DNA of 62,901 nt from an uncultured Pseudomonadales bacterium (GCA_964625685.1 CAZVBO010000001.1:1-62901), one strand, 5' to 3'. Shown: positions 1 to 46,800, counted from the stretch's first letter. Program-made: numbers and translations. The notes: a model not told the origin generated them from the letters alone.

Positions 1-173
1 TCACCTTAGGGTCGCCTAACCCGCACACGACGAACGTGGGTGCGGAAACCTTGGATATTCGGGGTTGAGGATTCTCACCTCAATCACGCTACTCATGCCG
101 GCATTCTCACTTCTGATCGCTCCAGCCAGTCCTCACGGCTGACCTTCAACGCACACAGAACGCTCCCCTACCG

Positions 174-320
174 CTCGCACTTCGCGCGAGAAATTCCAAA
201 CTCCACTTTTCCAAAATTCAAACATTTTTCAAACACTCATTCCTAAAGTTGGAATTTGATATCTGAATTTTGTTTGGTTTTTGGATTTTGGTATTTGAAA
301 ATTCTTGTGCGAAGCACAAG
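174..320 (-). repeat. IVS-like hairpin insertion in the 23S helix-45 region (modular repeat family)
   Basis: This block is unmatched between ACCGAAGUUUAGAG and CGGUAGGGGAGCG when compared with E. coli 23S from memory. Terminal GC hairpins (CUUGUGCUUCGCACAAG and CUCGCGCGAAGUGCGAG) flank a long A/U-rich imperfect palindrome of UUCCAAA/UUUGGAA units. Confidence 0.7.
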
Positions 321-934
321 CTCTAAACTTCGGTTATCAGTTTGAGCCTCGTTACATTTTCGGCGCACTCGTCCTAGGCTAGTGAGCTGTTACGCTTTCT
401 TTAAAGGATGGCTGCTTCTGAGCCGACCTCCTAGGTGTTTTAGGAAAAGCACTACCTTTCCCACTGAACTGATATTAGAGACCTTAGTTGTAGATCTGGG
501 ATGTTTCCCTTTTGCCTCTGGAGCTTAGCCCCCAGATACTGAGTGCCATGAAACACAATGAGGTATTCGAAGTTTGACTAGATGCTAGAAGTTTCCTCCC
601 AGACACCCGATCAGAGCCCTACCCCCTCATTGCTTAACATGACCCTATACCTAAATATATTTCGGGGAGAACCAGCTATCTCCGGGTTCGATTGGCATAT
701 TACCCCTAACCACAGCTCATCCGAGCATCTTGCAGCATACACCGGTTCGGGCCTCCACTGAGTATTACCTCAGCTTCACCCTGGCCATGGTTAGCTCACC
801 CGGTTTCGGGTCTATGACAATATACTTAACGCTCTATTCAAGCTCGCTTTCACTATGCATTCGTGATTGCATTCACTTATGCTTGCATATTGCCATAACT
901 CGCCGGCTCATTCTTCAATAGGCACGACATCACC

Positions 935-1076
935 ATGCGCTACGCGGAAAACTCCAAAATTCAAATTCCAAAGTACAAACAATTCTCAAAGGACAAGTAT
1001 CAAAATTGTAATTTGGTATTTGAGGTTTGTTTGGTTTTTGGATTTTGGTATTTGAAAATTTCTGTGCAACGCACAG
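935..1076 (-). repeat. IVS-like hairpin insertion in the 23S helix-25 region (modular repeat family)
   Basis: This block is unmatched between CUGAAACUAUCUGCUAACAAUCAGACAGAG and GGUGAUGUCGUGCCUAUUGAAGAAUGAGCCGGCGAGUU. It has the same architecture as the other two: CUGUGCGUUGCACAG, A/U-rich arms, then CCGCGUAGCGC. Confidence 0.7.
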
Positions 1077-1470
1077 CTCTGTCTGATTGTTAGCAGATAG
1101 TTTCAGGTACTATTTCACGGGGTCTTCAACCCTTCTTTTCACCTTTCCCTTACGGTACTCGTTCACTATCGGTCTTGTTTGGTATTTAGCCTTGGAGTGT
1201 GGTCACCCCAGCTTCAAAAGGGAGTTTGCCGTCTCCCAGTCTACTCAGGAACATTCTATAGCTTTTCTTGATTTCATATACGAGACTTTCACTCTCTTTG
1301 GTTACTTATTCCACAGTATTCTATTATCTTGAAAAGTCTAATGTTGAAGTCCTACAACCCCACGTAAGACGTGGTTTGGGCTATTCCCTGTTCGCTCGTC
1401 GCTTACTAAGGGAATCTCGTGCGATTTCTTTTCCTCGAGGTACTTAGATATTTCAGTTCTCTCGGTTACC

Positions 1471-1615
1471 CCTCTGCGCTGCGCGGAAAATTCCAATTTC
1501 CAAATATTCAAATTTCAAACAAGTTCCAGATTCCAGTCTTGTATTGAAATTTGGTATTTGAGTTTTGTTTGTTTTTTGAACTTTGGTATTTGAAAATTTC
1601 TGTGCAACACAGAGT
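1471..1615 (-). repeat. IVS-like hairpin insertion in the 23S helix-9/10 region (modular repeat family)
   Basis: This block is unmatched between GGGAAACCACGUCCCGCUAAUGCGGGAUGA and GGUAACCGAGAGAACUGAAAUAUC. It has the same architecture: CUGUGUUGCACAG, A/U-rich arms, then CCGCGCAGCGCAGAGG. Confidence 0.7.
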
Positions 1616-1989
1616 CATCCCGCATTAGCGGGACGTGGTTTCCCAATTCGGACACCACCGGATCAAAGCTTCTTGGCAGCTCCCCGATGACTATCGCGGC
1701 CTAGTACGTCCTTCTTCGGCCAAACAAGCCTAGGCATCCACTATCTGCATTAAGTCACATAATAACATGATTGATATTTTTAAGAATTCAAAATTATTGA
1801 AATGATATGTGAATACGGCCTATCCTGTACCAAAAAAGGTACAGGACAATTAGACCAATTCATATATACTCTTCACTTTTTAAGGAGCAATAAGCCTATG
1901 GCTTATTTAGCTGATAACAGCTAATTATTAGTTCTTCGTACTCTCCCGGTAAGGAAGAAACCAAGAACCAATAACTAGCCGTCATGTTG

Positions 1990-2063
1990 TGGACCTGAAG
2001 GGGCTCGAACCCTTGACCTCCACATTGCAAATGTGGCGCTCTAGCCAACTGAGCTACAGGCCC
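1990..2063 (-). tRNA. tRNA-Ala (anticodon UGC), 74 nt, no encoded CCA
   Basis: The reverse complement is GGGCCUGUAGCUCAGUUGGCUAGAGCGCCACAUUUGCAAUGUGGAGGUCAAGGGUUCGAGCCCCUUCAGGUCCA. It folds as a cloverleaf (7/4/5/5 stems) with anticodon loop UUUGCAA, the G3:U70 alanine identity pair and a GGUUCGA T-loop. Confidence 0.95.
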
Positions 2064-2246
2064 AAGCGACACGCTCAAATTAAGGTGCTACTTTTGCAAA
2101 GTAAAAAAACTCAGAGCAAAAGTATTCAGTTTGGTCTGTTCTGACTGTTGTAAAAAAGTTGAGGGATTATGCACTCTACGTAGTACATAATGTCGAATGT
2201 GGATCTGTTTTCTGCTTGATACAGAATTCCCGAACAGAGAATTAGT

Positions 2247-2275
2247 ATTGTAATACACCAAAAATAGAAATGCAA
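2247..2275 (-). promoter_or_regulatory. Sigma-70-type promoter candidate for the tRNA-Ala/23S transcription unit
   Basis: The minus strand reads TTGCAT (2275-2270), a 17-nt spacer, then TACAAT (2252-2247), about 185 nt upstream of the tRNA. Confidence 0.45.
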
Positions 2276-2287
2276 GGGGTCTTGTGA

Positions 2288-3172
2288 CTAAGGTGTCCGA
2301 TGCTTTCGAGCCTGCTCAAAAACTCTTAATTCGCTAAAATCCCCATCATCTTTAACCTCAGTTAATTCAAGAAAACTAATTACCGCACCAATTGAACCAA
2401 TAACAGCGTCTTTTATTAAAGGATCACTCTGAGAGGCTAAATATATCTTCATGGAATAAAGCAAAGACTCTAAAGGTTTGCGAATATTAAGGTCAACAAT
2501 TCGTGCTGTTTCTTCAATCTTTCCATCAAAACATGAGAAGTTATTTGGTAAATTTAGCAATGAATAGAAATCCAATATTGTTAGTTTTTCGTTATGATAA
2601 GAATATTCAATCCTATATTGCGATCTCGACTTAGAAGAAAGTTTAGTAAGAACAGATAATACCCTTGCTCTATCTAAACGGGCTATTTCGGTTTCTTTTA
2701 TAGTATTTAACAAATCTCTTTTATTTCCTTCTTTATCATTAACAAACTCCCAAGCTTCATTGAGAATTTTAACTATTTCTTCAGCTCGTTTTCTTTGAGA
2801 ACTGCATAAAGATCCTGTTTTATCTGGATGTAAAAAGAAAAGCCAAAAACGGTATCTTTGTCTGGCTTTTGATTTTTGATCACGTTCAGAAACCGAATCC
2901 GCCGAAAATAAAATATAGGGATCAATTATCAGCTTACCATTATATTTATATCTGGGAACAAATTTTACTCGTAGTTCAAATTCATGAATTAATTGTTCAA
3001 CTCTTGGTGAAAAGTCTCCGTCAAAATACAAAGGAAGCTCTTGTGGTTTCCTAAAAGCTGAAGGGTTGAATCTTAATATCTGGGAGAGCCTATCAGGAAT
3101 ATCTATAAATGCTTTTTCAGAAAAACTCTTCCCAACTGTAACTTCATCTTGGTGTTGTTCTGGCACACTCAT
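2288..3172 (-). CDS. J-domain (DnaJ-like) protein, otherwise uncharacterised
   Basis: 294-aa ORF. It carries an HPD motif in the typical J-domain context (RYRFWLFFLHPDKTG...AEEIVKILNEAWEFVNDKE). Confidence 0.6.
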   Translation of the reverse strand: MSVPEQHQDEVTVGKSFSEKAFIDIPDRLSQILRFNPSAFRKPQELPLYFDGDFSPRVEQLIHEFELRVKFVPRYKYNGKLIIDPYILFSADSVSERDQKSKARQRYRFWLFFLHPDKTGSLCSSQRKRAEEIVKILNEAWEFVNDKEGNKRDLLNTIKETEIARLDRARVLSVLTKLSSKSRSQYRIEYSYHNEKLTILDFYSLLNLPNNFSCFDGKIEETARIVDLNIRKPLESLLYSMKIYLASQSDPLIKDAVIGSIGAVISFLELTEVKDDGDFSELRVFEQARKHRTP

Positions 3173-3175
3173 AAT

Positions 3176-3886
3176 TTAGCTCCAATATTCCGGAAACTGT
3201 TTCATAAACTCTTTGCGTCTTTCTCCTTTTAATTCTGCAATAAAAGGTCGAAAGGTACTCAATCGATCATGAGCATGTTTATTGGCATATAACAGTTTAT
3301 TAATGTATTGCTGTAAATCCTCAGCCCGCATAATATTTTCAATGTAAAAATATTTTTTGTTAATTCTTTTTCCCAAACCTGAAGATTCCTCATCCGTAGC
3401 GATCCCAGAACTAGAAGCAGAGCTTCGTGCCGTCAATGTTCCCAACCCGAATAATGACTGAATAATCCCTTTAGTATAAGAACCTGTATCTACAATTTGA
3501 TCTAAAGGCAAAGACAAGTTATACCGACTCATCGGAGTAGTATAAACAAATTTAGTCAGACGTTTCGTTGTTAAAATAAAAAGACTTTTAAACCACAGGG
3601 TAGATATCCACCACCACCCAATAACTCCAAAAGCCAGTGCGGCTAAAACACTTACCAATTTAACGAGAGAACCTACAGAAACTGCCCCCAATTGAGCCAC
3701 TATCCCTCCCAGCCACCACCCAACAACCAGAACCACTCCCGCGGCTACAACTACGACCACTCTGCGTACCCACAGCATAATCGGATTTTCTCGCAACACA
3801 AATAAAATTTGCTCGTCGCTGGCTTGACCAGGAAATTTGTATTGATAGGGAAACTGAAACTGACTGACAGAAAAGATATTCTTCAT
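3176..3886 (-). CDS. Membrane protein with a bacterial PH-like (bPH_2/YdbS-like) domain
   Basis: 236-aa ORF. Two TM helices are followed by LTTKRLTKFVY...LPLDQIVD...GLGTLTARSS, which resembles bPH_2. Assignment is by eye only. Confidence 0.45.
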   Translation of the reverse strand: MKNIFSVSQFQFPYQYKFPGQASDEQILFVLRENPIMLWVRRVVVVVAAGVVLVVGWWLGGIVAQLGAVSVGSLVKLVSVLAALAFGVIGWWWISTLWFKSLFILTTKRLTKFVYTTPMSRYNLSLPLDQIVDTGSYTKGIIQSLFGLGTLTARSSASSSGIATDEESSGLGKRINKKYFYIENIMRAEDLQQYINKLLYANKHAHDRLSTFRPFIAELKGERRKEFMKQFPEYWS

Positions 3887-3892
3887 AAGCCT

Positions 3893-3898
3893 ATTATA
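3893..3898 (-). promoter_or_regulatory. -10 hexamer TATAAT 6 nt upstream of the ATG of 3176..3886 (leaderless candidate)
   Basis: The minus strand reads TATAAT aggctt ATG. Confidence 0.4.
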
Positions 3899-3930
3899 TC
3901 GGCTCTCACCAAAAGATAAGGATCAATTTC

Positions 3931-4980
3931 CTAAGGGATAACTTGTTCAACCTCTAAACCCTGTTGCTGAAGCAATGCTCGCTGATAAGGAGTCAGGTCC
4001 TGTAACTCTCGGGGAGTCACTAAGGGAGTATCAAAAACCTGAGTAAAGGCACCGAGTACATTCCCTTGTAGATCAACCATCTTTAAAATGAAATCTTTAG
4101 AAACTTGAGAAACATCAGTGGTGTTTTCGGGAACAGAAAAGTCTGTCTGTTGTCCAAAATCAGAAAAATCCAAATCAGCATTCCAGATAATCTCTGATTC
4201 TCCTGCCAAGAATTGGTGCCAACCCTCCAATACAGGAAGTCTTTCCAAAGATATAACAGTTGAAGTCTTGACCACTACCGGCAGAAATGAGTGCGCATCA
4301 ATTAAGACCACCATATGGAGGGGTGGCAACTGGTCAGTCGTCAACTGAAAGTTATCTCCAAATAATTGAGTCCCCAGAATTTCCAATTGTTCCGAGGTAA
4401 AAGCTACGGGAACTTCAAAAACTTCTTGTTCACCACGTTGTTGACGAGTAGCTTTTCCCACAGTGGGTAGATTCTTCAAGATATTAGCATCATAGTTTGC
4501 AAACTGGGTCTCAAACCAGCCCGAAGTCAATACGTTGAGATTTAATAAAGGCAACTGTGGTACTTGATTAAGCTTCACAAACAAAGCATCTTGGGTCACT
4601 ACACTCTCCCCCGCTCCGTTGAATGTAAAACCATGAATTGTCGCTTCAGCTTGGGTTTGTAAGTATACTTGAGTGTTATCATCTTTCCCTGACTTCAGCG
4701 CTCCCACCGAATGAGCCGTCATAAAAGTTTGAGAATTATTCTGACCAGAAAACTGCATGTCAGCATTCAGTTGTGCTGTATGAACTTGATTTAACTCGTA
4801 CCAAGCCTGTGATAAAACTTTTTGACCAGACTTATCACCAGGGAGTTGGAGATATAATTTTTGGAATTCGAAAAAAATATTTTTAGAGAGTCTCTGAGCC
4901 CAAACGGTTACTCCAGTTCCCAAGAGCAGTAACCCCATCACCCCAATTACGACTCCAATTTTGACTCTTTTCATAATCAC
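3931..4980 (-). CDS. Hypothetical N-terminally anchored extracytoplasmic protein
   Basis: 349-aa ORF with an N-terminal hydrophobic helix (VKIGVVIGVMGLLLLGTGVTVWA). No recognisable domain. Confidence 0.5.
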   Translation of the reverse strand: MIMKRVKIGVVIGVMGLLLLGTGVTVWAQRLSKNIFFEFQKLYLQLPGDKSGQKVLSQAWYELNQVHTAQLNADMQFSGQNNSQTFMTAHSVGALKSGKDDNTQVYLQTQAEATIHGFTFNGAGESVVTQDALFVKLNQVPQLPLLNLNVLTSGWFETQFANYDANILKNLPTVGKATRQQRGEQEVFEVPVAFTSEQLEILGTQLFGDNFQLTTDQLPPLHMVVLIDAHSFLPVVVKTSTVISLERLPVLEGWHQFLAGESEIIWNADLDFSDFGQQTDFSVPENTTDVSQVSKDFILKMVDLQGNVLGAFTQVFDTPLVTPRELQDLTPYQRALLQQQGLEVEQVIP

Positions 4981-9269: not shown

Positions 9270-9369
9270 TGTGTGTTTGAAATTTGAGATTTGTTTGGAA
9301 TTTTCCGCCCAAGGCGCCTGCCCGCCGGCGGGTGGGGACCAGCCTCGGGCTGGGGAACTTGAAATTTTA
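9270..9369. repeat. Composite repeat: A/T-rich UUUGGAA arm, expanded GC hairpin module, then a second A/T arm
   Basis: TTTGAAATTTGAGATTTGTTTGGAATTTTCCGC matches the inner end of the 23S inserts. The GC part (9305-9354) shares CCAGCC(C/T)(G/A)AGGCTGGTCC with 57436-57465. Confidence 0.65.
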
Positions 9370-11477: not shown

Positions 11478-11793
11478 AACTGAGGCTAAAACTCACTCAT
11501 GGCTAAAACTCTCTGATCCTGGCTTCTTGGAGTGTTGTCATAACTCATAAACACATCCATCATATCGTTTGGAATTGCTTGTGGAATGGAGTAAGTATTT
11601 CCATCAAAATCATATTTAAGGCCTACTTCTGTTGGCATATTTTTCCCTTTCTGCTATTATTTTTGGCTTCTCCGCCTGCAACGCTATACGTAGCACTGCG
11701 GGCAGGTGGTTTTTGGCTTTAAACTGTTAGCCCGTCCCTTTGCTTTTTTTCTTTTGTCTTTATTCTTTAAACTTCTCACTGTAACCCTGTATT

Positions 11794-11840
11794 GTTTCTG
11801 GTTTCTGGTTTCTGGTTTCTGGTTTCTGGTTTCTGGTTTC
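11794..11840. repeat. Tandem heptamer repeat (GTTTCTG) x ~6.7
   Basis: Read directly: gtttctg repeated head-to-tail from 11794 to 11840. Confidence 0.9.
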
Positions 11841-19502: not shown

Positions 19503-19540
19503 TGTTTTGTGATTAATGATTAATATTTAAAAATCTAAGT

Positions 19541-19640
19541 TACAAATTTCAAATTTTAAAAATCAAACAAGTTCCAAATTTCAAGTTCCAAACAAAGATT
19601 AAAATCCAATTTTGAAATTCCAATTTTTCTGGTTTTGAGC
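19541..19640. repeat. A/T-rich UUCCAAA-type repeat (intergenic copy)
   Basis: CAAATTTCAAATT...AAGTTCCAAATTTCAAGTTCCAAAC...GAAATTCCAATTTTTCTGGTTTT. It shares AAATTCCAATTTTTCTGG(C/T)TTT with 34870-34892. Confidence 0.6.
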
Positions 19641-21748: not shown

Positions 21749-22855
21749 TTAAACATCATCATTCACTTTAAATGGCATGGCTATATAGCGGTATTGTGAC
21801 AGATCTTCCGGCCGAAATAAAGCTGGTTGTAAGCTTTCATTCATCCCAAACCAAACTTTCTCTGTTTTAAAGGCATTCAGGAAATCTAAAATATATTGAG
21901 CATTAAAAGCAATCATCGTTGGTTCTGCTACTACGCTATCAAGTAAAACAGTGCTTTCATGATTGCCTAAGGATGGAGAAGAGGCAACCACTCTCAGTTG
22001 ATTTTCTTCAAAATATAATCGGACTATGTTGGATGTTTCTCGAGCAAAAACCAAAGCTGCTTTTAAAGCCTGACTAAGTTGAACTCCATCAAGGATTAAT
22101 TGAGTTTTAAAATCAGCGGGAATAATTTTTTTGTAAGGGGGAAATTCACCTTCCATTAATCGGATAATCATCTCGGTATCACCAAATGAACAAAAAACCT
22201 GTTTTAGTTCTGTTGACACGGTGAGAGTGATACTTTCAGAGTCAACCTTTGCATACAAACGAGTAATTTCTGTAAGTGATTTGGCAGGTAATAACAAATC
22301 AGGAAGTGAAGATGATTCTGAAAATTGAAGCGTTGCCAACCGAAAGCCATCAGTAGCGACTACTTCCATGTGATCTTCGAATTTAAAAAGAACAGCCGTT
22401 AAAATTGGTCTGCTATCATCCTTGGCGGTGGCAATACTCACTGTGTTCACAATTTGATCAAAGTCTGACTTAGAAAGAGTCAAGGATTCGCCTTGTTTCG
22501 TTGGGAATTGAGGATATTCATCAATAGAAAAAGTTTGCAAAGTTGAGGTACTCCGGTCATCACGAATAATAAGTTGAGACTCTTTCGTTTCGAGAATAAT
22601 AGTCCCTGAACCAAGTGTGGAAACAATGTCGCTCAGAGTTTTGGCAGGAATAGCGACTGTTCCCTCTGATTCCACTGAACCCAATACTTGGGTTTTAATT
22701 CCCGTAAATAAATCAGTAGCAAACAAAGTAATTTTACCCTGTTCTGCTTGGAGTAAAACGGCTTGTAGAATGGGTAACTGAGGATTACTAGGAATCACTC
22801 TTTTAACATCGTTTAACGCTTGTTTAAGGTTTGCTTGTTTAACACTGAGTTTCAT
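21749..22855 (-). CDS. dnaN: DNA polymerase III beta subunit (sliding clamp)
   Basis: 368-aa ORF immediately downstream of dnaA, with typical length and a three-domain pattern (MKLSVKQANLKQAL...PILQAVLL...). Confidence 0.85.
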   Translation of the reverse strand: MKLSVKQANLKQALNDVKRVIPSNPQLPILQAVLLQAEQGKITLFATDLFTGIKTQVLGSVESEGTVAIPAKTLSDIVSTLGSGTIILETKESQLIIRDDRSTSTLQTFSIDEYPQFPTKQGESLTLSKSDFDQIVNTVSIATAKDDSRPILTAVLFKFEDHMEVVATDGFRLATLQFSESSSLPDLLLPAKSLTEITRLYAKVDSESITLTVSTELKQVFCSFGDTEMIIRLMEGEFPPYKKIIPADFKTQLILDGVQLSQALKAALVFARETSNIVRLYFEENQLRVVASSPSLGNHESTVLLDSVVAEPTMIAFNAQYILDFLNAFKTEKVWFGMNESLQPALFRPEDLSQYRYIAMPFKVNDDV

Positions 22856-23121: not shown

Positions 23122-24651
23122 CTACTTAGAAATTGCCTTGAGTGACATTTTTATAGCTGACAATTCTTGACGAAGCCGGTCATCAACCTGACTTTGCGAC
23201 TCAATTTTATTAAAAGCGTGCATGGCACTGGTGTGGTCTCGGTTGGAGAACCACCGGCCAATTTCGGTATAAGGCATATCTAATTCTTTTTTGAGAAAAT
23301 ACATGGCAATGTGGCGGGCATGTACGATTGATTTTTGTCGTTTAACTCCCTTTACTTCCACTTGTTTGATGTGAAAATGATTGGCAACAGACTTAATTAA
23401 GTCTGTTGGCGAAACTCGTAATTTTTCAACTGTTTGAAACTGAATTTCATTGGAAAAATTTAAAATTTCGGTAACTAATTCTTTGGTAATTTCTCGGTGT
23501 TTAAGTTCAACCTCTGATCGTAAACTGGAGATGATTCCTTCAATTTTACGGGCACTGTCTACTTTGGAAGCGATGAGTTGAGCAATATCCATAGGCACTT
23601 CAAGATGATGTGCTTTGGCTTTAATCAATAAAATTGCAGTTCTCAATTCAAAACTGGGTTGTTGGATATCAATCATTAAACCAGCCTCAAAACGGGATCT
23701 AAGTCGATCTTCTAATAAATTAATTTCATGAGGTGGCCGATCAGAAGTCATCACAATTTGACCCTGTTGCTTAATAATAGAATTAAAGGTATGAAAAAAC
23801 TCTTCTTGAACAGCATTTTTCCCGGCAATAAACTGGACATCGTCGATTAACAAAACTTCAACATTTCGATACTTGGCTTTAAACTGAATTGTCTTTTTAT
23901 TTTGAATTGAACTTACGATTTCATTTGTAAATTCTTCGCCAGTACAGTATAAAACTTTAACTTCAGGATTGTTAAACAAAATATTACTGCCAATGGCTTG
24001 CATCAAGTGAGTTTTACCAACGCCCACACCCCCATAGAAAAAAAGTGGGTTATATGCTGTCCCAGGATTTTGAGACACCGCACTGGCGGCCGCATGGGCC
24101 ATTTCATTGGTTGTAGAAACAGCAAACGTAGTGAAAGTGTAATCTGGTCTTAAGCCAGCTTTTTTGATAGCGAACTCAGCTTGAGAAATAGTATTCTGCT
24201 GGAGAGTCTGAGGTGAGAACAAATCTTCGACTCGGGGAGATTGAACCTCGTGGTTGGAGGGCTTTGGAGACGAAGTTGAAAAGGATACTTGAGATGAGGA
24301 AATTTCTTCAAAGGGAGTTTGAAATGAAGTTTTTTTCTTAATGGTAGGCTGGGTTATGGGAGAACCAATTTCAAACAATAATGTAGCTGTTTTACCAGTT
24401 ACGCGCTGAATAGCGGCCTCAATTTCACTTTGGAGATTTTTTTTAATATTAGTAGCGTGGAAAGCGGTGGGACAAGTGATGGTGGCCGTAGCTTGAGTTT
24501 CATTGATGACTTCGAATTTGGTGAGCGGATTAGACACTATCCAAAAGTTAAAAACTGCAGGCGAAACTTTCAGCTCGAGATCAGCACAAACCTGTTTCCA
24601 AATTTGTTGAACCGAAGAATTTGTTTGAGAATCAATAGTGTCAACGCTCAT
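23122..24651 (-). CDS. dnaA: Chromosomal replication initiator protein DnaA
   Basis: 509-aa ORF with Walker A GGVGVGKTHL, box VII and a C-terminal DNA-binding helix (RDHTSAMHAFNKI). Confidence 0.95.
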   Translation of the reverse strand: MSVDTIDSQTNSSVQQIWKQVCADLELKVSPAVFNFWIVSNPLTKFEVINETQATATITCPTAFHATNIKKNLQSEIEAAIQRVTGKTATLLFEIGSPITQPTIKKKTSFQTPFEEISSSQVSFSTSSPKPSNHEVQSPRVEDLFSPQTLQQNTISQAEFAIKKAGLRPDYTFTTFAVSTTNEMAHAAASAVSQNPGTAYNPLFFYGGVGVGKTHLMQAIGSNILFNNPEVKVLYCTGEEFTNEIVSSIQNKKTIQFKAKYRNVEVLLIDDVQFIAGKNAVQEEFFHTFNSIIKQQGQIVMTSDRPPHEINLLEDRLRSRFEAGLMIDIQQPSFELRTAILLIKAKAHHLEVPMDIAQLIASKVDSARKIEGIISSLRSEVELKHREITKELVTEILNFSNEIQFQTVEKLRVSPTDLIKSVANHFHIKQVEVKGVKRQKSIVHARHIAMYFLKKELDMPYTEIGRWFSNRDHTSAMHAFNKIESQSQVDDRLRQELSAIKMSLKAISK

Positions 24652-34830: not shown

Positions 34831-34900
34831 TAAATTCCAAATGCCAAAATTCAAACATCAAATAAATTCCAAACTCCAAATTCCAATTTTTCTGGCTTTC
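34831..34900. repeat. A/T-rich UUCCAAA-type repeat (intergenic copy)
   Basis: TTAAATTCCAAATGCCAAAATTCAAACATCAAATAAATTCCAAACTCCAAATTCCAATTTTTCTGGCTTT. Confidence 0.6.
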
Positions 34901-36830
34901 AACCTTCCTCCAGGTTGTTTTTCAAATTAGAGTGATGTTTTTGCTCTCGATACTGTTTTACCCATATTTTTTCTAAAACTTCTAAAATTTCTCTTGAATT
35001 TGTGAGTGAAGTCAACAACTCGTAGTCTTTTTCTTGTAGCCAGAATCTTGCCTCTTGGCTCACCAGATCGCTATTAAGGAGTTCTTGAAAACTTAACGTT
35101 GGTTTTAGAATTTTTTCTTGAATTTGGTGAAAAGTTAGCCAAATGAAATAATTGTTAGGGTCCTCATCGGTTACCTGTTCTTGTAAGTGCTGTTCAATTT
35201 CATCAAATTGAGCCTGCTGAGTTTCTTGTTGGAGTGTGCTGAGGAGTTCATCATACTGCTGCTTGGTGAGTGGCATGGCCAGTTGCTCAAGAGGATCATC
35301 TAAAGGAATACCAAACGGATACTCTGGAGTAACACAAGGACCGTAAACTTTCCCTTTTTCCATAATTATTCCATTTTTAACTTCACCAGTTCCGACCCTA
35401 CAACCAGGTGCCTCTAAGTAACTAGTGGGAACCATCCAAATTTGGCTCGCTCCCGCTGCTGTCAGATCTAGCTCAATATATTCTGCTTGGTCAAGCTGCT
35501 TGAGTAACTCTTGCTTGTTTGTTAATGACAGAGCATTGAGTTCTATCTTTAGACCGGCAAGATTATTGACTTTGAGAGCTAGTGACACTGGTGAAAAGAT
35601 GCCACATTGAGCTAAAGAAAACATGCGATTACTCACCATAAAAAAAGTATTGAGTTCTTTCAGTTTCCCGATTTGGGCTGGGGTAAGTTTCTGACCAACC
35701 AGAATCTGTAGCTGAAGTGCTGTTTTTTCTTGATACCGATTAAATATTTGGTTTAGTGTTAGTTTTTCAATTTGCTTCTGAGATGTTTTTTTCTTTTCAT
35801 TCGTTGGTAAAAATTGCTCTCCATACTTCAACATCGTTTGAAAAGCTGAAGAAAAAAGTACATCAAGGTGTTTGAGTTGCTGCTGCAACTTTTTTTCATC
35901 CTGATTGGTAAAGATGGGGAGAACAGCTTGAAAATAATGTTCAAAAATTTGTTGACTCAACTGGTTGAATTCCTCAATATTTAAATCGGGAAACTGACTA
36001 CGATTGACCGGCCACTTGGTCTCATGTTGATAAAGCAGTGCTTCCAACATTTCAGTTGAAAAGTCGGTGGAAAGCTCAATCAAATGATCAATAATATGTA
36101 ATTCAGGTGCTAACTGGATTTCGTCAGACAGTGTTCCTGGATACAACTTCCCTTGATATTGATCGAAAAGTAGCTGCTGAAGAGTTGTAAGTTCAGTATT
36201 ATCTGACCAAACCTTGAACTGCTGGTAAATGACTCCTCCCTCTAGATCTTTATAATAGTAGTTAATCATTACTGGGTTTTTTCTATCTGTTCCCGGATAT
36301 CCTTCGGTCTTTTTGCCTCTGGGACTAACCCAAATGAGAACAGAGTTCACTGATCTAGGGTCATTTATCCAGTGGGTGAGTCGTTGCATGTTGTTATTTT
36401 CCACTTCAGCTCTAGAAAGTTCACCACCTTTCTGTTGCTGATTTTCCACAAAGCCTTGACCAATTTTAGGGAGTTCTTCTTGATAACTGTGATCGACACC
36501 TGTAGTGAAGAGTTCATACGTAGGTGTTTTCCAGAAAAATGTTTCATGAAGTAGAGTTTGCCAGTCCATCCATAATGCAGATTTGATTGCCTCAGGAGAC
36601 TCATATTCAGTGTGAGTAAAACGGTCCAGTAGTGCTTTAGAGTTCCATACATTTACTCGGGACTCCAAGCCCCGTATTTTTCGAGAAAAGTAGCTCAAGC
36701 GATTTTTTTGTTTATCGGCCTGAGAAAGAATCCTTTCGACAAAGTGCAACAAGAAAAAATCTGGTGATCTTTTAGGAGGTGTTACTGGTTGTACCTCTTG
36801 GATGGAAGAATAAATTTCGGCTGTGGTCAC
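34899..36830 (-). CDS. Hypothetical 643-aa soluble protein (GTG start) directly downstream of the riboswitch candidate
   Basis: Long uninterrupted ORF with no TM helix or signal peptide and no recognisable motif. The only SD (AGGAG, 6 nt from GTG) lies in the 3' arm of the leader hairpin. Confidence 0.65.
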   Translation of the reverse strand: MTTAEIYSSIQEVQPVTPPKRSPDFFLLHFVERILSQADKQKNRLSYFSRKIRGLESRVNVWNSKALLDRFTHTEYESPEAIKSALWMDWQTLLHETFFWKTPTYELFTTGVDHSYQEELPKIGQGFVENQQQKGGELSRAEVENNNMQRLTHWINDPRSVNSVLIWVSPRGKKTEGYPGTDRKNPVMINYYYKDLEGGVIYQQFKVWSDNTELTTLQQLLFDQYQGKLYPGTLSDEIQLAPELHIIDHLIELSTDFSTEMLEALLYQHETKWPVNRSQFPDLNIEEFNQLSQQIFEHYFQAVLPIFTNQDEKKLQQQLKHLDVLFSSAFQTMLKYGEQFLPTNEKKKTSQKQIEKLTLNQIFNRYQEKTALQLQILVGQKLTPAQIGKLKELNTFFMVSNRMFSLAQCGIFSPVSLALKVNNLAGLKIELNALSLTNKQELLKQLDQAEYIELDLTAAGASQIWMVPTSYLEAPGCRVGTGEVKNGIIMEKGKVYGPCVTPEYPFGIPLDDPLEQLAMPLTKQQYDELLSTLQQETQQAQFDEIEQHLQEQVTDEDPNNYFIWLTFHQIQEKILKPTLSFQELLNSDLVSQEARFWLQEKDYELLTSLTNSREILEVLEKIWVKQYREQKHHSNLKNNLEEG

Positions 36831-37069: not shown

Positions 37070-37185
37070 TAAAATCCAAAGTTCAAATTCCAAGTACCAA
37101 ACAAAAATCAAAATACAAAAACTCAAGTAAAAATGAACTTTGATATTTGTAGTTTGTTTGATTTTTGGTTTTTGGAACTTGATAT
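37070..37185. repeat. A/T-rich palindromic UUCCAAA/UUUGGAA repeat (intergenic copy)
   Basis: The left arm AAAATCCAAAGTTCAAATTCCAAGTACCAAACAAAAATCAAA faces the right arm TTTGATATTTGTAGTTTGTTTGATTTTTGGTTTTTGGAACTTGA. Confidence 0.65.
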
Positions 37186-37229
37186 TTATTGTGTGAGTCT
37201 CTACTAGACTCAAACAATCTGTTGTGTTT

Positions 37230-38702
37230 ATGATGGTGACAGAAGATAGTCTAAAGGATTATATGGCAGAACCAGGTACCGGTCCGAGCGAAGCAGAGGT
37301 AACACAGCAACCAACGACTGCAGAAACACCACTTCCAGCGGGGACAGAGGTTTTAGCTGATTCGACAACTCCAAACTCGACTTCAGAAAACCCGTCACCA
37401 AATGCAGACTCAGCCAACTCAGAACCCAGAACAAAACCAGATTTAACAGAGGTGTCAGATAATCAGTCTCCAGATAATTCCCAATCACCAGCATTTCAGT
37501 TGCTCTCCGGGTTGGGTGCTTTTGATAAAAACAACCCTGAGGCAACCAAGGAGTTCTCTCAAAAAACACCTGCCCAACTTGAGGATGATTTAAAGCAACT
37601 AACAGAAATGTATGCTGACGATCCTCAAAAAGTAAATCAGATCAAGCGTTATTTTATAGCTCAAATATTGGACCCAAGTGCCTCAGAAGGTGCCAGAACG
37701 GCTTTATTGTCTCAAGACATTGATGCTTTACTCCAAATGAAAGCTGCAAAACAGGGTGTGAGTAATGCCGAAGACGAAAATTTTGATGATGTTACTAGAG
37801 AAAGACTGAATAAAAAGGAAGGGCAAGCTGGAGCCGTTGTGGATTATGATACTAGTCAAACTACTGAAACAGAAGCAAGAAATCGATGGTTGGGGAAAGA
37901 AGATGAGAATGGGGAACGACATGGTGGGTTAATTTATGAAGCGCTAGCAACTCACTTATCGGGGAAAGAATTAGAAGTAGCTAGACAGAAACTTTCACAA
38001 CCGGGAATCTCACCAGAAGAGGGTATTGCCTTACTTACTGGCAAAGATTTAAATGATGAAAAACAAAAAGCAGAGGTAGAAGAAGATGTTAACCGGTTTA
38101 AAAAAGCCATAGCCGAATATGTAGGACCGCATATGTTTGATTTGGCTTTCAAACACAATGACTTTAGCGCCTTTCTTGATTTTTTGTTTACGGACAGAAG
38201 TTATGGTTTCGGGGGAGGAGCTGGTGAATTCTCAAAGAATGGAGAAAAAAACGATGGGATTGGTAAAACTGATTTCGAGAACCTGCTTAAAGATGACAAT
38301 CCCAGTCGACGGCAAGAACTGGGAAAAAACTTGGAAAAAGCGATTACTGATTCGGGTGAAAAAGGATTGGAGTGGCACGGATTCCAATTAGCCAATAAAG
38401 AAGCAGTATTGCAAAAAGCTCGAGCTGGAGATGCAGAATCAATTAAGCTTGTTTTTGATCAAATTTTACGTTTTCTATTTGATGACTCTGGAAAAACGAT
38501 GCAGCGATGGGGCGTGGCCCGAAAAATTTTGGGAGAAAATTTGTTTCCCTCAAAACAGCAGCCTTTAAGTGGTGAAGTTGCAAATTATTTGGCTCAAGAA
38601 TTTAACAAACCTCATGAGGAATGGTGGAAGAGCGTGTTGACTCAAAGTAATGTTAAAGCTTTCCCTCAATCAAATTCATTGCCCCAGGCAAAAGCCGCCT
38701 AA
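37230..38702 (+). CDS. Hypothetical acidic protein with a low-complexity Pro/Ser/Thr/Glu N-terminus
   Basis: The ORF starts at 37224 (GTG) and the first ATG is at 37230. About 490 aa with no TM helix and no recognised domain. Confidence 0.6.
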   Translation: MMVTEDSLKDYMAEPGTGPSEAEVTQQPTTAETPLPAGTEVLADSTTPNSTSENPSPNADSANSEPRTKPDLTEVSDNQSPDNSQSPAFQLLSGLGAFDKNNPEATKEFSQKTPAQLEDDLKQLTEMYADDPQKVNQIKRYFIAQILDPSASEGARTALLSQDIDALLQMKAAKQGVSNAEDENFDDVTRERLNKKEGQAGAVVDYDTSQTTETEARNRWLGKEDENGERHGGLIYEALATHLSGKELEVARQKLSQPGISPEEGIALLTGKDLNDEKQKAEVEEDVNRFKKAIAEYVGPHMFDLAFKHNDFSAFLDFLFTDRSYGFGGGAGEFSKNGEKNDGIGKTDFENLLKDDNPSRRQELGKNLEKAITDSGEKGLEWHGFQLANKEAVLQKARAGDAESIKLVFDQILRFLFDDSGKTMQRWGVARKILGENLFPSKQQPLSGEVANYLAQEFNKPHEEWWKSVLTQSNVKAFPQSNSLPQAKAA

Positions 38703-46459: not shown

Positions 46460-46800
46460 ACAGGCTAATGTTATTCCGACGAAGTTAGGAACCTCTGTAT
46501 TTCCTAAAATACAAATATCAAAGTCCCTGCCTGCGCAGGCAGGCAAAATTCAAACATATTTCAAAATTCAAGTTCCAGGATCTGGCTTTTAGTAACCAGT
46601 AACTTTTACTTTCTTCTTTAAGCTTTACACTTAAAATTCTACTTTTTTGTCTTGGATCCTGAATCACGTCACTTCGTTCCTGTTCAGGATGACGGCTGGT
46701 AGTTTCTGGCTTTTAGCTTTAAACCTTTAAATCTCTATTCCTTTATTTCTTAGTTCTTTTTTTGTTTTTGTTCTTTTGTCTTTACCCTTTAAACTTTTTT
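46460..46800. repeat. Repeat-dense convergent spacer (A/T arm, GC hairpins and TTTCTGGCTTTTAGCTTTAAAC tail motifs)
   Basis: CCTGCCTGCGCAGGCAGG hairpin at 46527-46545. ATCCTGAA...TTCAGGAT hairpin at 46653-46689. The tail motifs are shared with 11700-11800, 19640-19700 and 62610-62640. Confidence 0.6.

Follow-up and report, generated by a model that had tools for sequence, protein, structure and literature searches.

Heptad-arm palindromic inserts at three helices of a 23S rRNA gene in a Microgenomates-type bacterium

The 23S rRNA gene at the start of contig CAZVBO010000001.1 (GCA_964625685.1) is interrupted by three extra blocks, and the question is what these blocks are and what becomes of them in the rRNA. 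We analyzed positions 1-62901 of this contig (62,901 nt; hereafter, the window). The Rfam model for bacterial large-subunit (LSU) rRNA, RF02541, matched 1764..1 on the minus strand over model positions 1-1399 with a score of 1114.2 bits, and the gene (1..1764, minus strand) is represented by its 5' part, truncated by the start of the window. An earlier note, made from the sequence alone, had pointed to three blocks with no counterpart in 23S rRNA; the alignment with RF02541 agreed, and comparison with host stems and empty sites gave lengths of 129, 132 and 133 nt. Based on the results described below, we conclude, with a probability of about 0.85, that the three blocks are copies of one palindromic element that has no open reading frame (ORF), is built of inverted arms of 7-nt units (heptads) on a GC-rich basal stem, and is of the intervening-sequence (IVS) type.

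The inserts in helices 10, 25 and 45

Each of the three inserts replaces the loop of a host helix. We set the boundaries of the inserts by comparison with the host stems and with the unoccupied sites of relatives. Insert 1 (129 nt; 1479..1607, minus strand) replaces the loop of helix 10 (H10), with 120 nt unaligned inside the model hairpin 151-177 of RF02541; the whole hairpin, including the host stem, spans 1472-1614. Insert 2 (132 nt; 939..1070, minus strand) replaces the loop of H25 between model positions 583 and 584 (whole hairpin, 932-1077), and insert 3 (133 nt; 181..313, minus strand) replaces that of H45 between model positions 1218 and 1219 (whole hairpin, 173-321). The hairpin at model positions 151-177 comes after the hairpins of H8 (GGGAAACC) and H9, and we take it to be H10 in E. 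coli numbering and not the classical alpha-proteobacterial site in H9. The blocks had been placed at all three classical hot-spots for such sequences; the alignment proposed for fixing the insertion points confirmed the loops of H25 and H45 and moved the first site from H9 to H10.

The inserts belong to a single repeat family, as had been proposed. Pairwise identity among the three was 75-79%, with blastn E-values of 2e-28 to 3e-20. Their GC content was 0.30-0.32, compared to 0.485 in the remaining rRNA, and the longest stop-free stretch per insert was 31-44 codons. There was no ORF for a protein of the IVP family (PF05635) inside the inserts, and the arms enclose no four-helix-bundle protein gene. 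Only LSU rRNA and tRNA reached the Rfam gathering scores in the whole window; neither a group I or group II intron nor any other Rfam family was found in the inserts or the rest of the window at these thresholds.

Each insert folds as a single long irregular hairpin that prolongs its host helix. The folding energies were -41.7, -43.6 and -58.5 kcal/mol for the inserts in H10, H25 and H45, with z-scores of -5.7, -6.4 and -8.6, respectively, and none of 200 shuffled sequences folded as well. Folding had been suggested as a check in the earlier note, which envisaged two separate GC-rich hairpins in each block and many G-U pairs. Neither feature survived: when the inserts were folded with their host flanks, the GC-rich 5' and 3' ends paired with each other as a basal clamp (probability ~1.0), the local 5' hairpin CUGUGC-N3-GCACAG was rejected (probability ~0), and only 5-8 of the ~50 pairs per insert were G-U. 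We aligned the three inserts with a fourth copy from another genome and found standard pairs in 91% of the alignment cells, in marked contrast to 22-54% in a control in which the pairing partners were slid. Compensatory double changes were present in 10 of 48 pairs, a number reached in none of 500 shuffles. These changes support the pairing of the clamp.

Each arm repeats a 7-nt unit in tandem, and the two arrays are inverted relative to each other; the units are of the xxCCAAA type in the 5' arm and the TTTGGxx type in the 3' arm. The UUCCAAA units noticed earlier do reflect a true 7-nt periodicity: the autocorrelation of the arms peaked at lag 7 (0.50-0.57, a value not reached in any of 2000 arm-wise shuffles) with a second peak at lag 14, and the program TRF reported period-7 units (TTTGGTT, AAATTCC) in each insert. 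The arms are not perfect arrays; they consist of degenerate, mixed heptads in a conserved order.

The sites in H10 and H25 are empty in relatives. Contigs from relatives preserve the gene order around the gene for valyl-tRNA synthetase (ValRS), and two of them (L037 and L039) reach the tRNA-Ala and 23S genes; those of L036, L038, L040, L041 and L053 stop short of the rRNA. The 23S flanks of these two relatives are 85-90% identical to those of the window (~89% in L037, which has a ValRS that is 66% identical). In L037, H10 is the short hairpin UUCUGCU-UUUUA-AGUAGAA and H25 is the short hairpin AGCCUGGC-GUAU-GCUGGGU; in L039, H10 is CUCCGCC-UUUU-AGGCGAGAG. None of these contains an insert. Based on these empty sites, we conclude that the blocks in H10 and H25 are lineage-specific insertions that replaced a loop of 4-5 nt. 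Together, the folds and the empty sites bear out the view that the insertions occupy helix tips that tolerate them, where they build extended stem-loops. Comparison of filled and empty sites revealed no clear target-site duplication; there was a possible GCGT at H25, and it was not repeated at H10.

Related copies in spacers, in a 16S rRNA gene and around IVP genes

The family is not confined to rRNA, and it is part of a class of heptad-arm hairpins that crosses phyla. Both observations go beyond the earlier note. We searched the window with an nhmmer profile built from the three inserts and found a full-length palindromic copy that lacks the GC clamp at 37071..37197 on the minus strand (E 7.9e-15, profile positions 7-129). 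It is located between the divergent genes 34899..36830 (minus strand) and 37224..38702 (plus strand), matched in blastn at 76% over 124 nt, and folds with -32.5 kcal/mol (z-score, -3.4). There is a one-arm heptad tract, A/C-rich on the plus strand, at 34832..34895 (plus strand; E 1.3e-6; TRF period 7), in the spacer of two minus-strand genes, and it forms no hairpin alone. The spacer between the genes for RNase H and KhpB has a heptad tract at 19537..19637 (plus strand; E 6e-4 and 3.5e-3; TRF period 7); the same spacer has a heptad tract in L036, a closer relative (ValRS 76%), and is just 12 bp in L037. Two matches are weak members: a fragment at 9274..9316 (plus strand; E 1.3e-3) that is like the junction of the 3' arm and the clamp (TTTGGAATTTTCCGC) and is followed by GC-rich hairpins, and a heptad tract around a GC hairpin (CCTGCCTGCGCAGGCAGG) at 46511..46590 (plus strand; E 5e-3 and 1e-2). 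Across the window, the density of heptad units in spacers was ~7 times that in coding DNA.

Other repeats are present in spacers of the window. A further heptad array, the perfect tandem array (GTTTCTG) x6.7, lies at 11794-11840 in a 639-bp spacer and has no inverted partner nearby. In addition, the motif TTTCTGG(C/T)TTT(T)AG recurs after heptad tracts on the plus strand (~34885, 19625, 46580, 46700 and 11665-11715). On the transcribed minus strand, it reads AAAGCCAGAAA, lies shortly after stop codons and leads into G/U heptads; the motif may be a processing or termination signal.

We scanned genomes with the 24-mer arm sequence CAAATACCAAANTCCAAAAACCAA and found 19 loci, in Patescibacteria, Clostridia, Terriglobia, Bacteroidota and Verrucomicrobia, with genome GC contents of 30-59%. 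Many of these loci contain long hairpins in which an A/C-rich arm faces a G/U-rich arm around a GC-rich core. None of the 19 is inside a 23S gene, and one (L021, in the Patescibacteria metagenome-assembled genome (MAG) MAG041, JBFLWV010000059.1) also contains a 16S rRNA gene of 2,658 nt (1466-4123). This gene has inserts of 102 nt in the h6 region, 108 nt in h10 and 159 nt in h17, with more further 3'. The match of the insert in h17 to the window profile was full-length and took in the clamp (E 2.4e-14), and the insert in h10 is a shorter heptad-arm hairpin. One scan of viral contigs gave no matches to the arm motif. A lone match in a metagenome contig of 29% GC (L001) was taken to be due to chance. 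Ten small ORFs beside arm matches in other phyla were not IVP; the local IVP profile was positive only in L015, indicating that most heptad-arm elements are ORF-less.

Inverted heptad arms also bracket genes for IVP proteins. A metagenome scan for the arm motif led to marine Verrucomicrobial loci, in which two copies of the 30-mer AATTTTCAAATACCAAAcTCCAAAAACCAA form an inverted repeat. At 29 of 30 bases, the Verrucomicrobial arm TTTCAAATACCAAAcTCCAAAAACCAA is identical to the 5' arm of a window insert. The copies of AATTTTCAAATACCAAAcTCCAAAAACCAA flank a 123-aa ORF that encodes an IVP protein (PF05635, E 2.6e-9, above the gathering score; TIGR02436). Verrucomicrobial IVP orthologues (55-100% identical) share their neighbours, and one paralogous locus has different neighbours. 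All of these loci are tightly bracketed by inverted arms with 7-nt periodicity that differ in sequence and keep their complementarity. Extending the inspection to three phyla, we found inverted heptad arrays around 12 of 12 IVP genes, with the units ATTCAAA, GTGATTA, CTGGTCA, AAGTAAA, GTCGGAG and GGGTGTA in cyanobacterial and Bacteroidota plasmids, and AATTTGG next to TTACGAA in Dolichospermum. In five 8-kb loci, every period-7 tract that was detected adjoins an IVP gene. In the literature that we searched, no paper ties IVP genes to heptad repeats, although absence there is no proof of novelty.

The surroundings of the IVP genes varied. In five Verrucomicrobial loci (L027, L030, L032, L035 and L015), the cassette is inside an apparent single operon, with its heptad arms directly adjoining the genes on both sides: the upstream gene at its stop codon and the downstream gene, for an ABC-ATPase, at its start codon. 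This placement is conserved in the 55-100% identical orthologues and resembles an 'intervening sequence' in mRNA. In both L042 (Anabaena pANACY.01) and L047 (a plasmid of Nostoc TCL26-01), an IVP/four-helix-bundle gene separates cas2 from cas1 in a CRISPR adaptation module. In L048 (Dolichospermum plasmid pAfl69, 2147-6900), a stretch of 8 kb has eight tracts of (AATTACG)n or (ATTCCAA)n, several of which fall within regions annotated as coding, in a helicase/methyltransferase locus.

Excision or retention in the rRNA

The inserts share several properties with rRNA IVSs. In classical IVSs, it is the tetraloop of H9, H25 or H45 that is replaced, and the inserts in H25 and H45 of other bacteria that have been tested experimentally are excised. 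Like the classical 23S IVSs (in Salmonella, Yersinia, Campylobacter, Leptospira and Coxiella, and in H9 of alpha-proteobacteria), the inserts in the window convert the terminal loops of H25 and H45 into extended stem-loops by means of complementary termini, and they are sporadic, being absent from H10 and H25 of L037 and from H10 of L039. RNase III processes the IVS in H45 of Coxiella burnetii, which includes an ORF of the IVP type; this IVS has two to three copies of the heptamer GACAGAT in tandem, and the 5' cleavage site of RNase III is at the first of them (PMC4990558). Tandem heptamers in the stem region are thus a feature that the Coxiella IVS shares with the inserts described here. Unlike the classical IVSs, those in the window are from one family at three sites, the third of which is H10 and not H9, and they are short, ORF-less and also intergenic; their excision is a prediction.

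Similar inserts are known from the Candidate Phyla Radiation (CPR), the group to which the host organism belongs (see below). Tsurumaki et al. 2024 found inserts in 82% of CPR 23S genes, with short ORF-less inserts at IVS sites being frequent, some CPR rRNA inserts holding IVP ORFs, and abundant group I introns biased to the 3' region (PMC11270868). Given this survey, it is not in itself surprising to find an IVS-like insert in the 23S gene of a CPR bacterium, and the description of the blocks as unusual for CPR was overstated. The short non-intron, ORF-less inserts at sites 23IS2 and 23IS4 are especially similar: they are from the same clade, are <200 bp, are at a similar site, and were suggested by the authors to be IVS-like (PMC11270868). 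The window differs from what that survey reported in having a sequence family, heptad periodicity, copies outside rRNA and a link to IVP.

We think that the inserts are probably intervening sequences that are cut out of the rRNA and have spread in the manner of a small selfish element, and we lean slightly toward excision by RNase III with fragmentation of the 23S rRNA. This leaning is due to the precedent in Coxiella, the behaviour of IVSs in H25 and H45, and the statement by Tsurumaki et al. that the CPR rRNA inserts of Brown et al. are removed from transcripts (PMC11270868). The inserts would be transcribed within pre-23S rRNA, and each would fold as an irregular hairpin of ~50-55 bp stacked on the host helix at a solvent-exposed tip, so that ribosome assembly could proceed. 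RNase III would cut the stems and there would be no religation, as in the classical IVSs, giving predicted pieces of ~157, 408 and 625 nt and the rest of the molecule. At the level of DNA, the family has multiplied and lies in intergenic spacers too, as one member of the cross-phylum class of heptad-arm hairpins.

Several observations weigh against this interpretation or parts of it. The stems are broken every 4-9 bp by internal loops and contain two A-C mismatches, indicating that they are not ideal substrates for RNase III. Only for the copy in H45 is folding clearly better in the sense than in the antisense strand; for H10 and H25 the two are about equal, so selection at the level of RNA is not proven for every copy. 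The asymmetry between G-U and A-C is likewise clear only for H45 and for the 16S inserts of L021. The comparison with empty sites spans H10 (L037 and L039) and H25 (L037). A narrow local profile found no IVP gene in the window, and no gene for RNase III (rnc) is visible in these 63 kb, which is uninformative for the whole genome. 'Helix 10' was never mentioned in the IVS literature that we searched, and H10 is therefore undocumented as an IVS site. Finally, the heptads in the RNase P RNA of cyanobacteria are reportedly kept in the mature RNA, which would be a precedent for retention.

The most serious alternative is that the heptad-arm hairpins are retained as expansion segments that prolong H10, H25 and H45 in a mature, one-piece 23S rRNA, and we consider this outcome plausible and somewhat less probable than excision. 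The irregular stems and the lack of a visible rnc gene fit with retention, as does the variability of the three sites in eukaryotes, with internal transcribed spacer 2 (ITS2) at H10, expansion segment 7 (ES7) at H25 and ES15 at H45. Heptads also occur in other structural RNAs and in transcripts: short tandemly repeated repetitive (STRR) heptads are reported within an RNase P RNA gene (Vioque 1997), and hairpins formed by STRR sequences have been seen in transcripts (PMC2670836). However, RNase III cuts the heptamer-containing IVS of Coxiella at the very first repeat (PMC4990558), the H25 and H45 inserts of other bacteria that were studied experimentally are excised, and removal from transcripts has been stated for CPR inserts (PMC11270868). 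In addition, the basal clamp and the host stem together provide a run of ~20 stacked pairs, compatible with cleavage by RNase III.

Two other explanations fare much worse. The possibility that the blocks are self-splicing introns or homing-endonuclease inserts, like most of the CPR rRNA insertions that have been described, draws on the abundance of group I introns in CPR 23S genes. It is effectively refuted by the lack of any group I or group II family at gathering thresholds in the window, by the small size (just 129-133 nt) and simple ORF-less hairpin structure of the inserts, and by their location in the 5' half of the gene, while CPR group I introns favour the 3' region. It is also very improbable that the blocks are an assembly artefact or a chance similarity of low-complexity sequence. 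The contig ends within the rRNA, the arms are of low complexity, and other, independent Logan contigs of the same organism end before the tRNA and 23S genes, leaving the rRNA part without independent assembly support. Yet three diverged copies (75-79% identical) prolong different host helices in register and with compensatory pairs, the same design is present in the 16S rRNA of an independent MAG, and the nhmmer and blastn E-values are far below those expected by chance. Taken together, we favour the interpretation of the blocks as ORF-less, IVS-type copies of one heptad-arm element, with excision by RNase III as the likelier fate.

The host genome and the wider family

The best named homologues of the ValRS encoded in the window are from Candidatus Pacebacteria, Woesebacteria and Microgenomates (59-64% identity), indicating that the organism is a CPR bacterium of the Microgenomates group. 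A 27-base pattern common to the three inserts had no match in the genome contig collection, indicating that the organism's own rRNA is absent from that collection. The gene for tRNA-Ala(UGC) (1989..2063, minus strand) is directly upstream of the 23S gene. No 16S gene was found with Rfam anywhere in the 62,901 nt of the window, and with none within 60 kb, we conclude that the rRNA genes are unlinked. In the window, in L037 (1-1376) and in L039 (1-685), nothing but tRNA-Ala(UGC) separates the 23S gene from the protein genes farther upstream.

The rest of the window contains other features of note. The ORF adjoining the tRNA and 23S genes (2288..3172, minus strand; 294 aa) had no homologue but itself among 5.8 billion proteins. 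The longest contig in the record for its cluster is 234,123 bp, and the source contig therefore extends past the window. The genes dnaN (21749..22855) and dnaA (23122..24651) were assigned by synteny with relatives. The rnpA-rpmH-yidC-khpB cluster and the minimum of the cumulative GC skew (~16-22 kb) suggest that the replication origin is in this region.

Heptad arms connect the inserts to other elements. STRR sequences are 7-bp tandem units that form hairpins in the intergenic spacers of filamentous cyanobacteria, and their hairpins are thought to stabilise RNA (PMC2670836). Heptads of this kind are also reported in the gene for RNase P RNA in heterocystous cyanobacteria (Vioque 1997). The inserts resemble STRR sequences in having tandem 7-nt units and inverted arrays that form hairpins, in being dispersed in spacers, and in occurring within the gene for a structural RNA; the unit TTTGGAA/TTCCAAA itself is found beside the Dolichospermum IVP gene. 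They differ in their host, as STRR sequences were described from heterocyst-forming cyanobacteria and not from CPR or rRNA, and the window is Microgenomates-type. With the IVP cassettes (PF05635, TIGR02436, Avd-like), the inserts share inverted heptad arms, which are nearly identical (29/30) to those of a Verrucomicrobial cassette, and they differ in having no ORF; that inverted heptad arms are a feature of IVP cassettes was established in this analysis and is not part of a published definition. Miniature inverted-repeat transposable elements (MITEs) and the Rickettsia palindromic elements are short, ORF-less, dispersed palindromes, found in genes where the product tolerates insertion. The family in the window is likewise short, ORF-less, palindromic and dispersed at tolerant places; in contrast to MITEs, it has no identified terminal inverted repeats of the transposase type, and its arms are tandem heptads.

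As far as we have checked, four aspects of these findings are undescribed: the occupation of three helices, including H10, by a single family; its further presence in intergenic DNA as well as in the 16S rRNA of a second CPR bacterium; a 7-nt periodic arm common to the inserts, IVP cassettes, the Coxiella IVS and STRR sequences; and a near-identical arm sequence in five phyla (CPR, Verrucomicrobia, Bacteroidota, Acidobacteria and Clostridia). We tentatively suggest, as an idea that we regard as rather doubtful, that inverted heptad arms are the common cis module of one ancient inter-phylum selfish family, in which the autonomous form carries IVP, an Avd-like four-helix-bundle protein, and the ORF-less forms include STRR sequences, many rRNA IVSs and the CPR inserts. 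If so, then the strict 7-nt period would reflect recognition by IVP or by the machinery for processing or mobility, there would be a single explanation for 'IVS', 'STRR' and 'IVP', and the uncharacterised PF05635 would gain a role.

The 7-nt-periodic arms join three separate literatures, on rRNA IVSs, on the STRR heptamers of cyanobacteria and on the IVP/PF05635 proteins, and they provide a testable handle on the origin and spread of IVSs and on the function of IVP proteins. If the inserts are excised, then the large ribosomal subunit of this organism would be built from at least four pieces of 23S rRNA, one of them a 5.8S-like piece of 157 nt generated by the cut in H10, the position of ITS2 in eukaryotes. 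There are also practical consequences for studies of CPR bacteria, as inserts of this kind disrupt the assembly of rRNA sequences, primers and classifiers.

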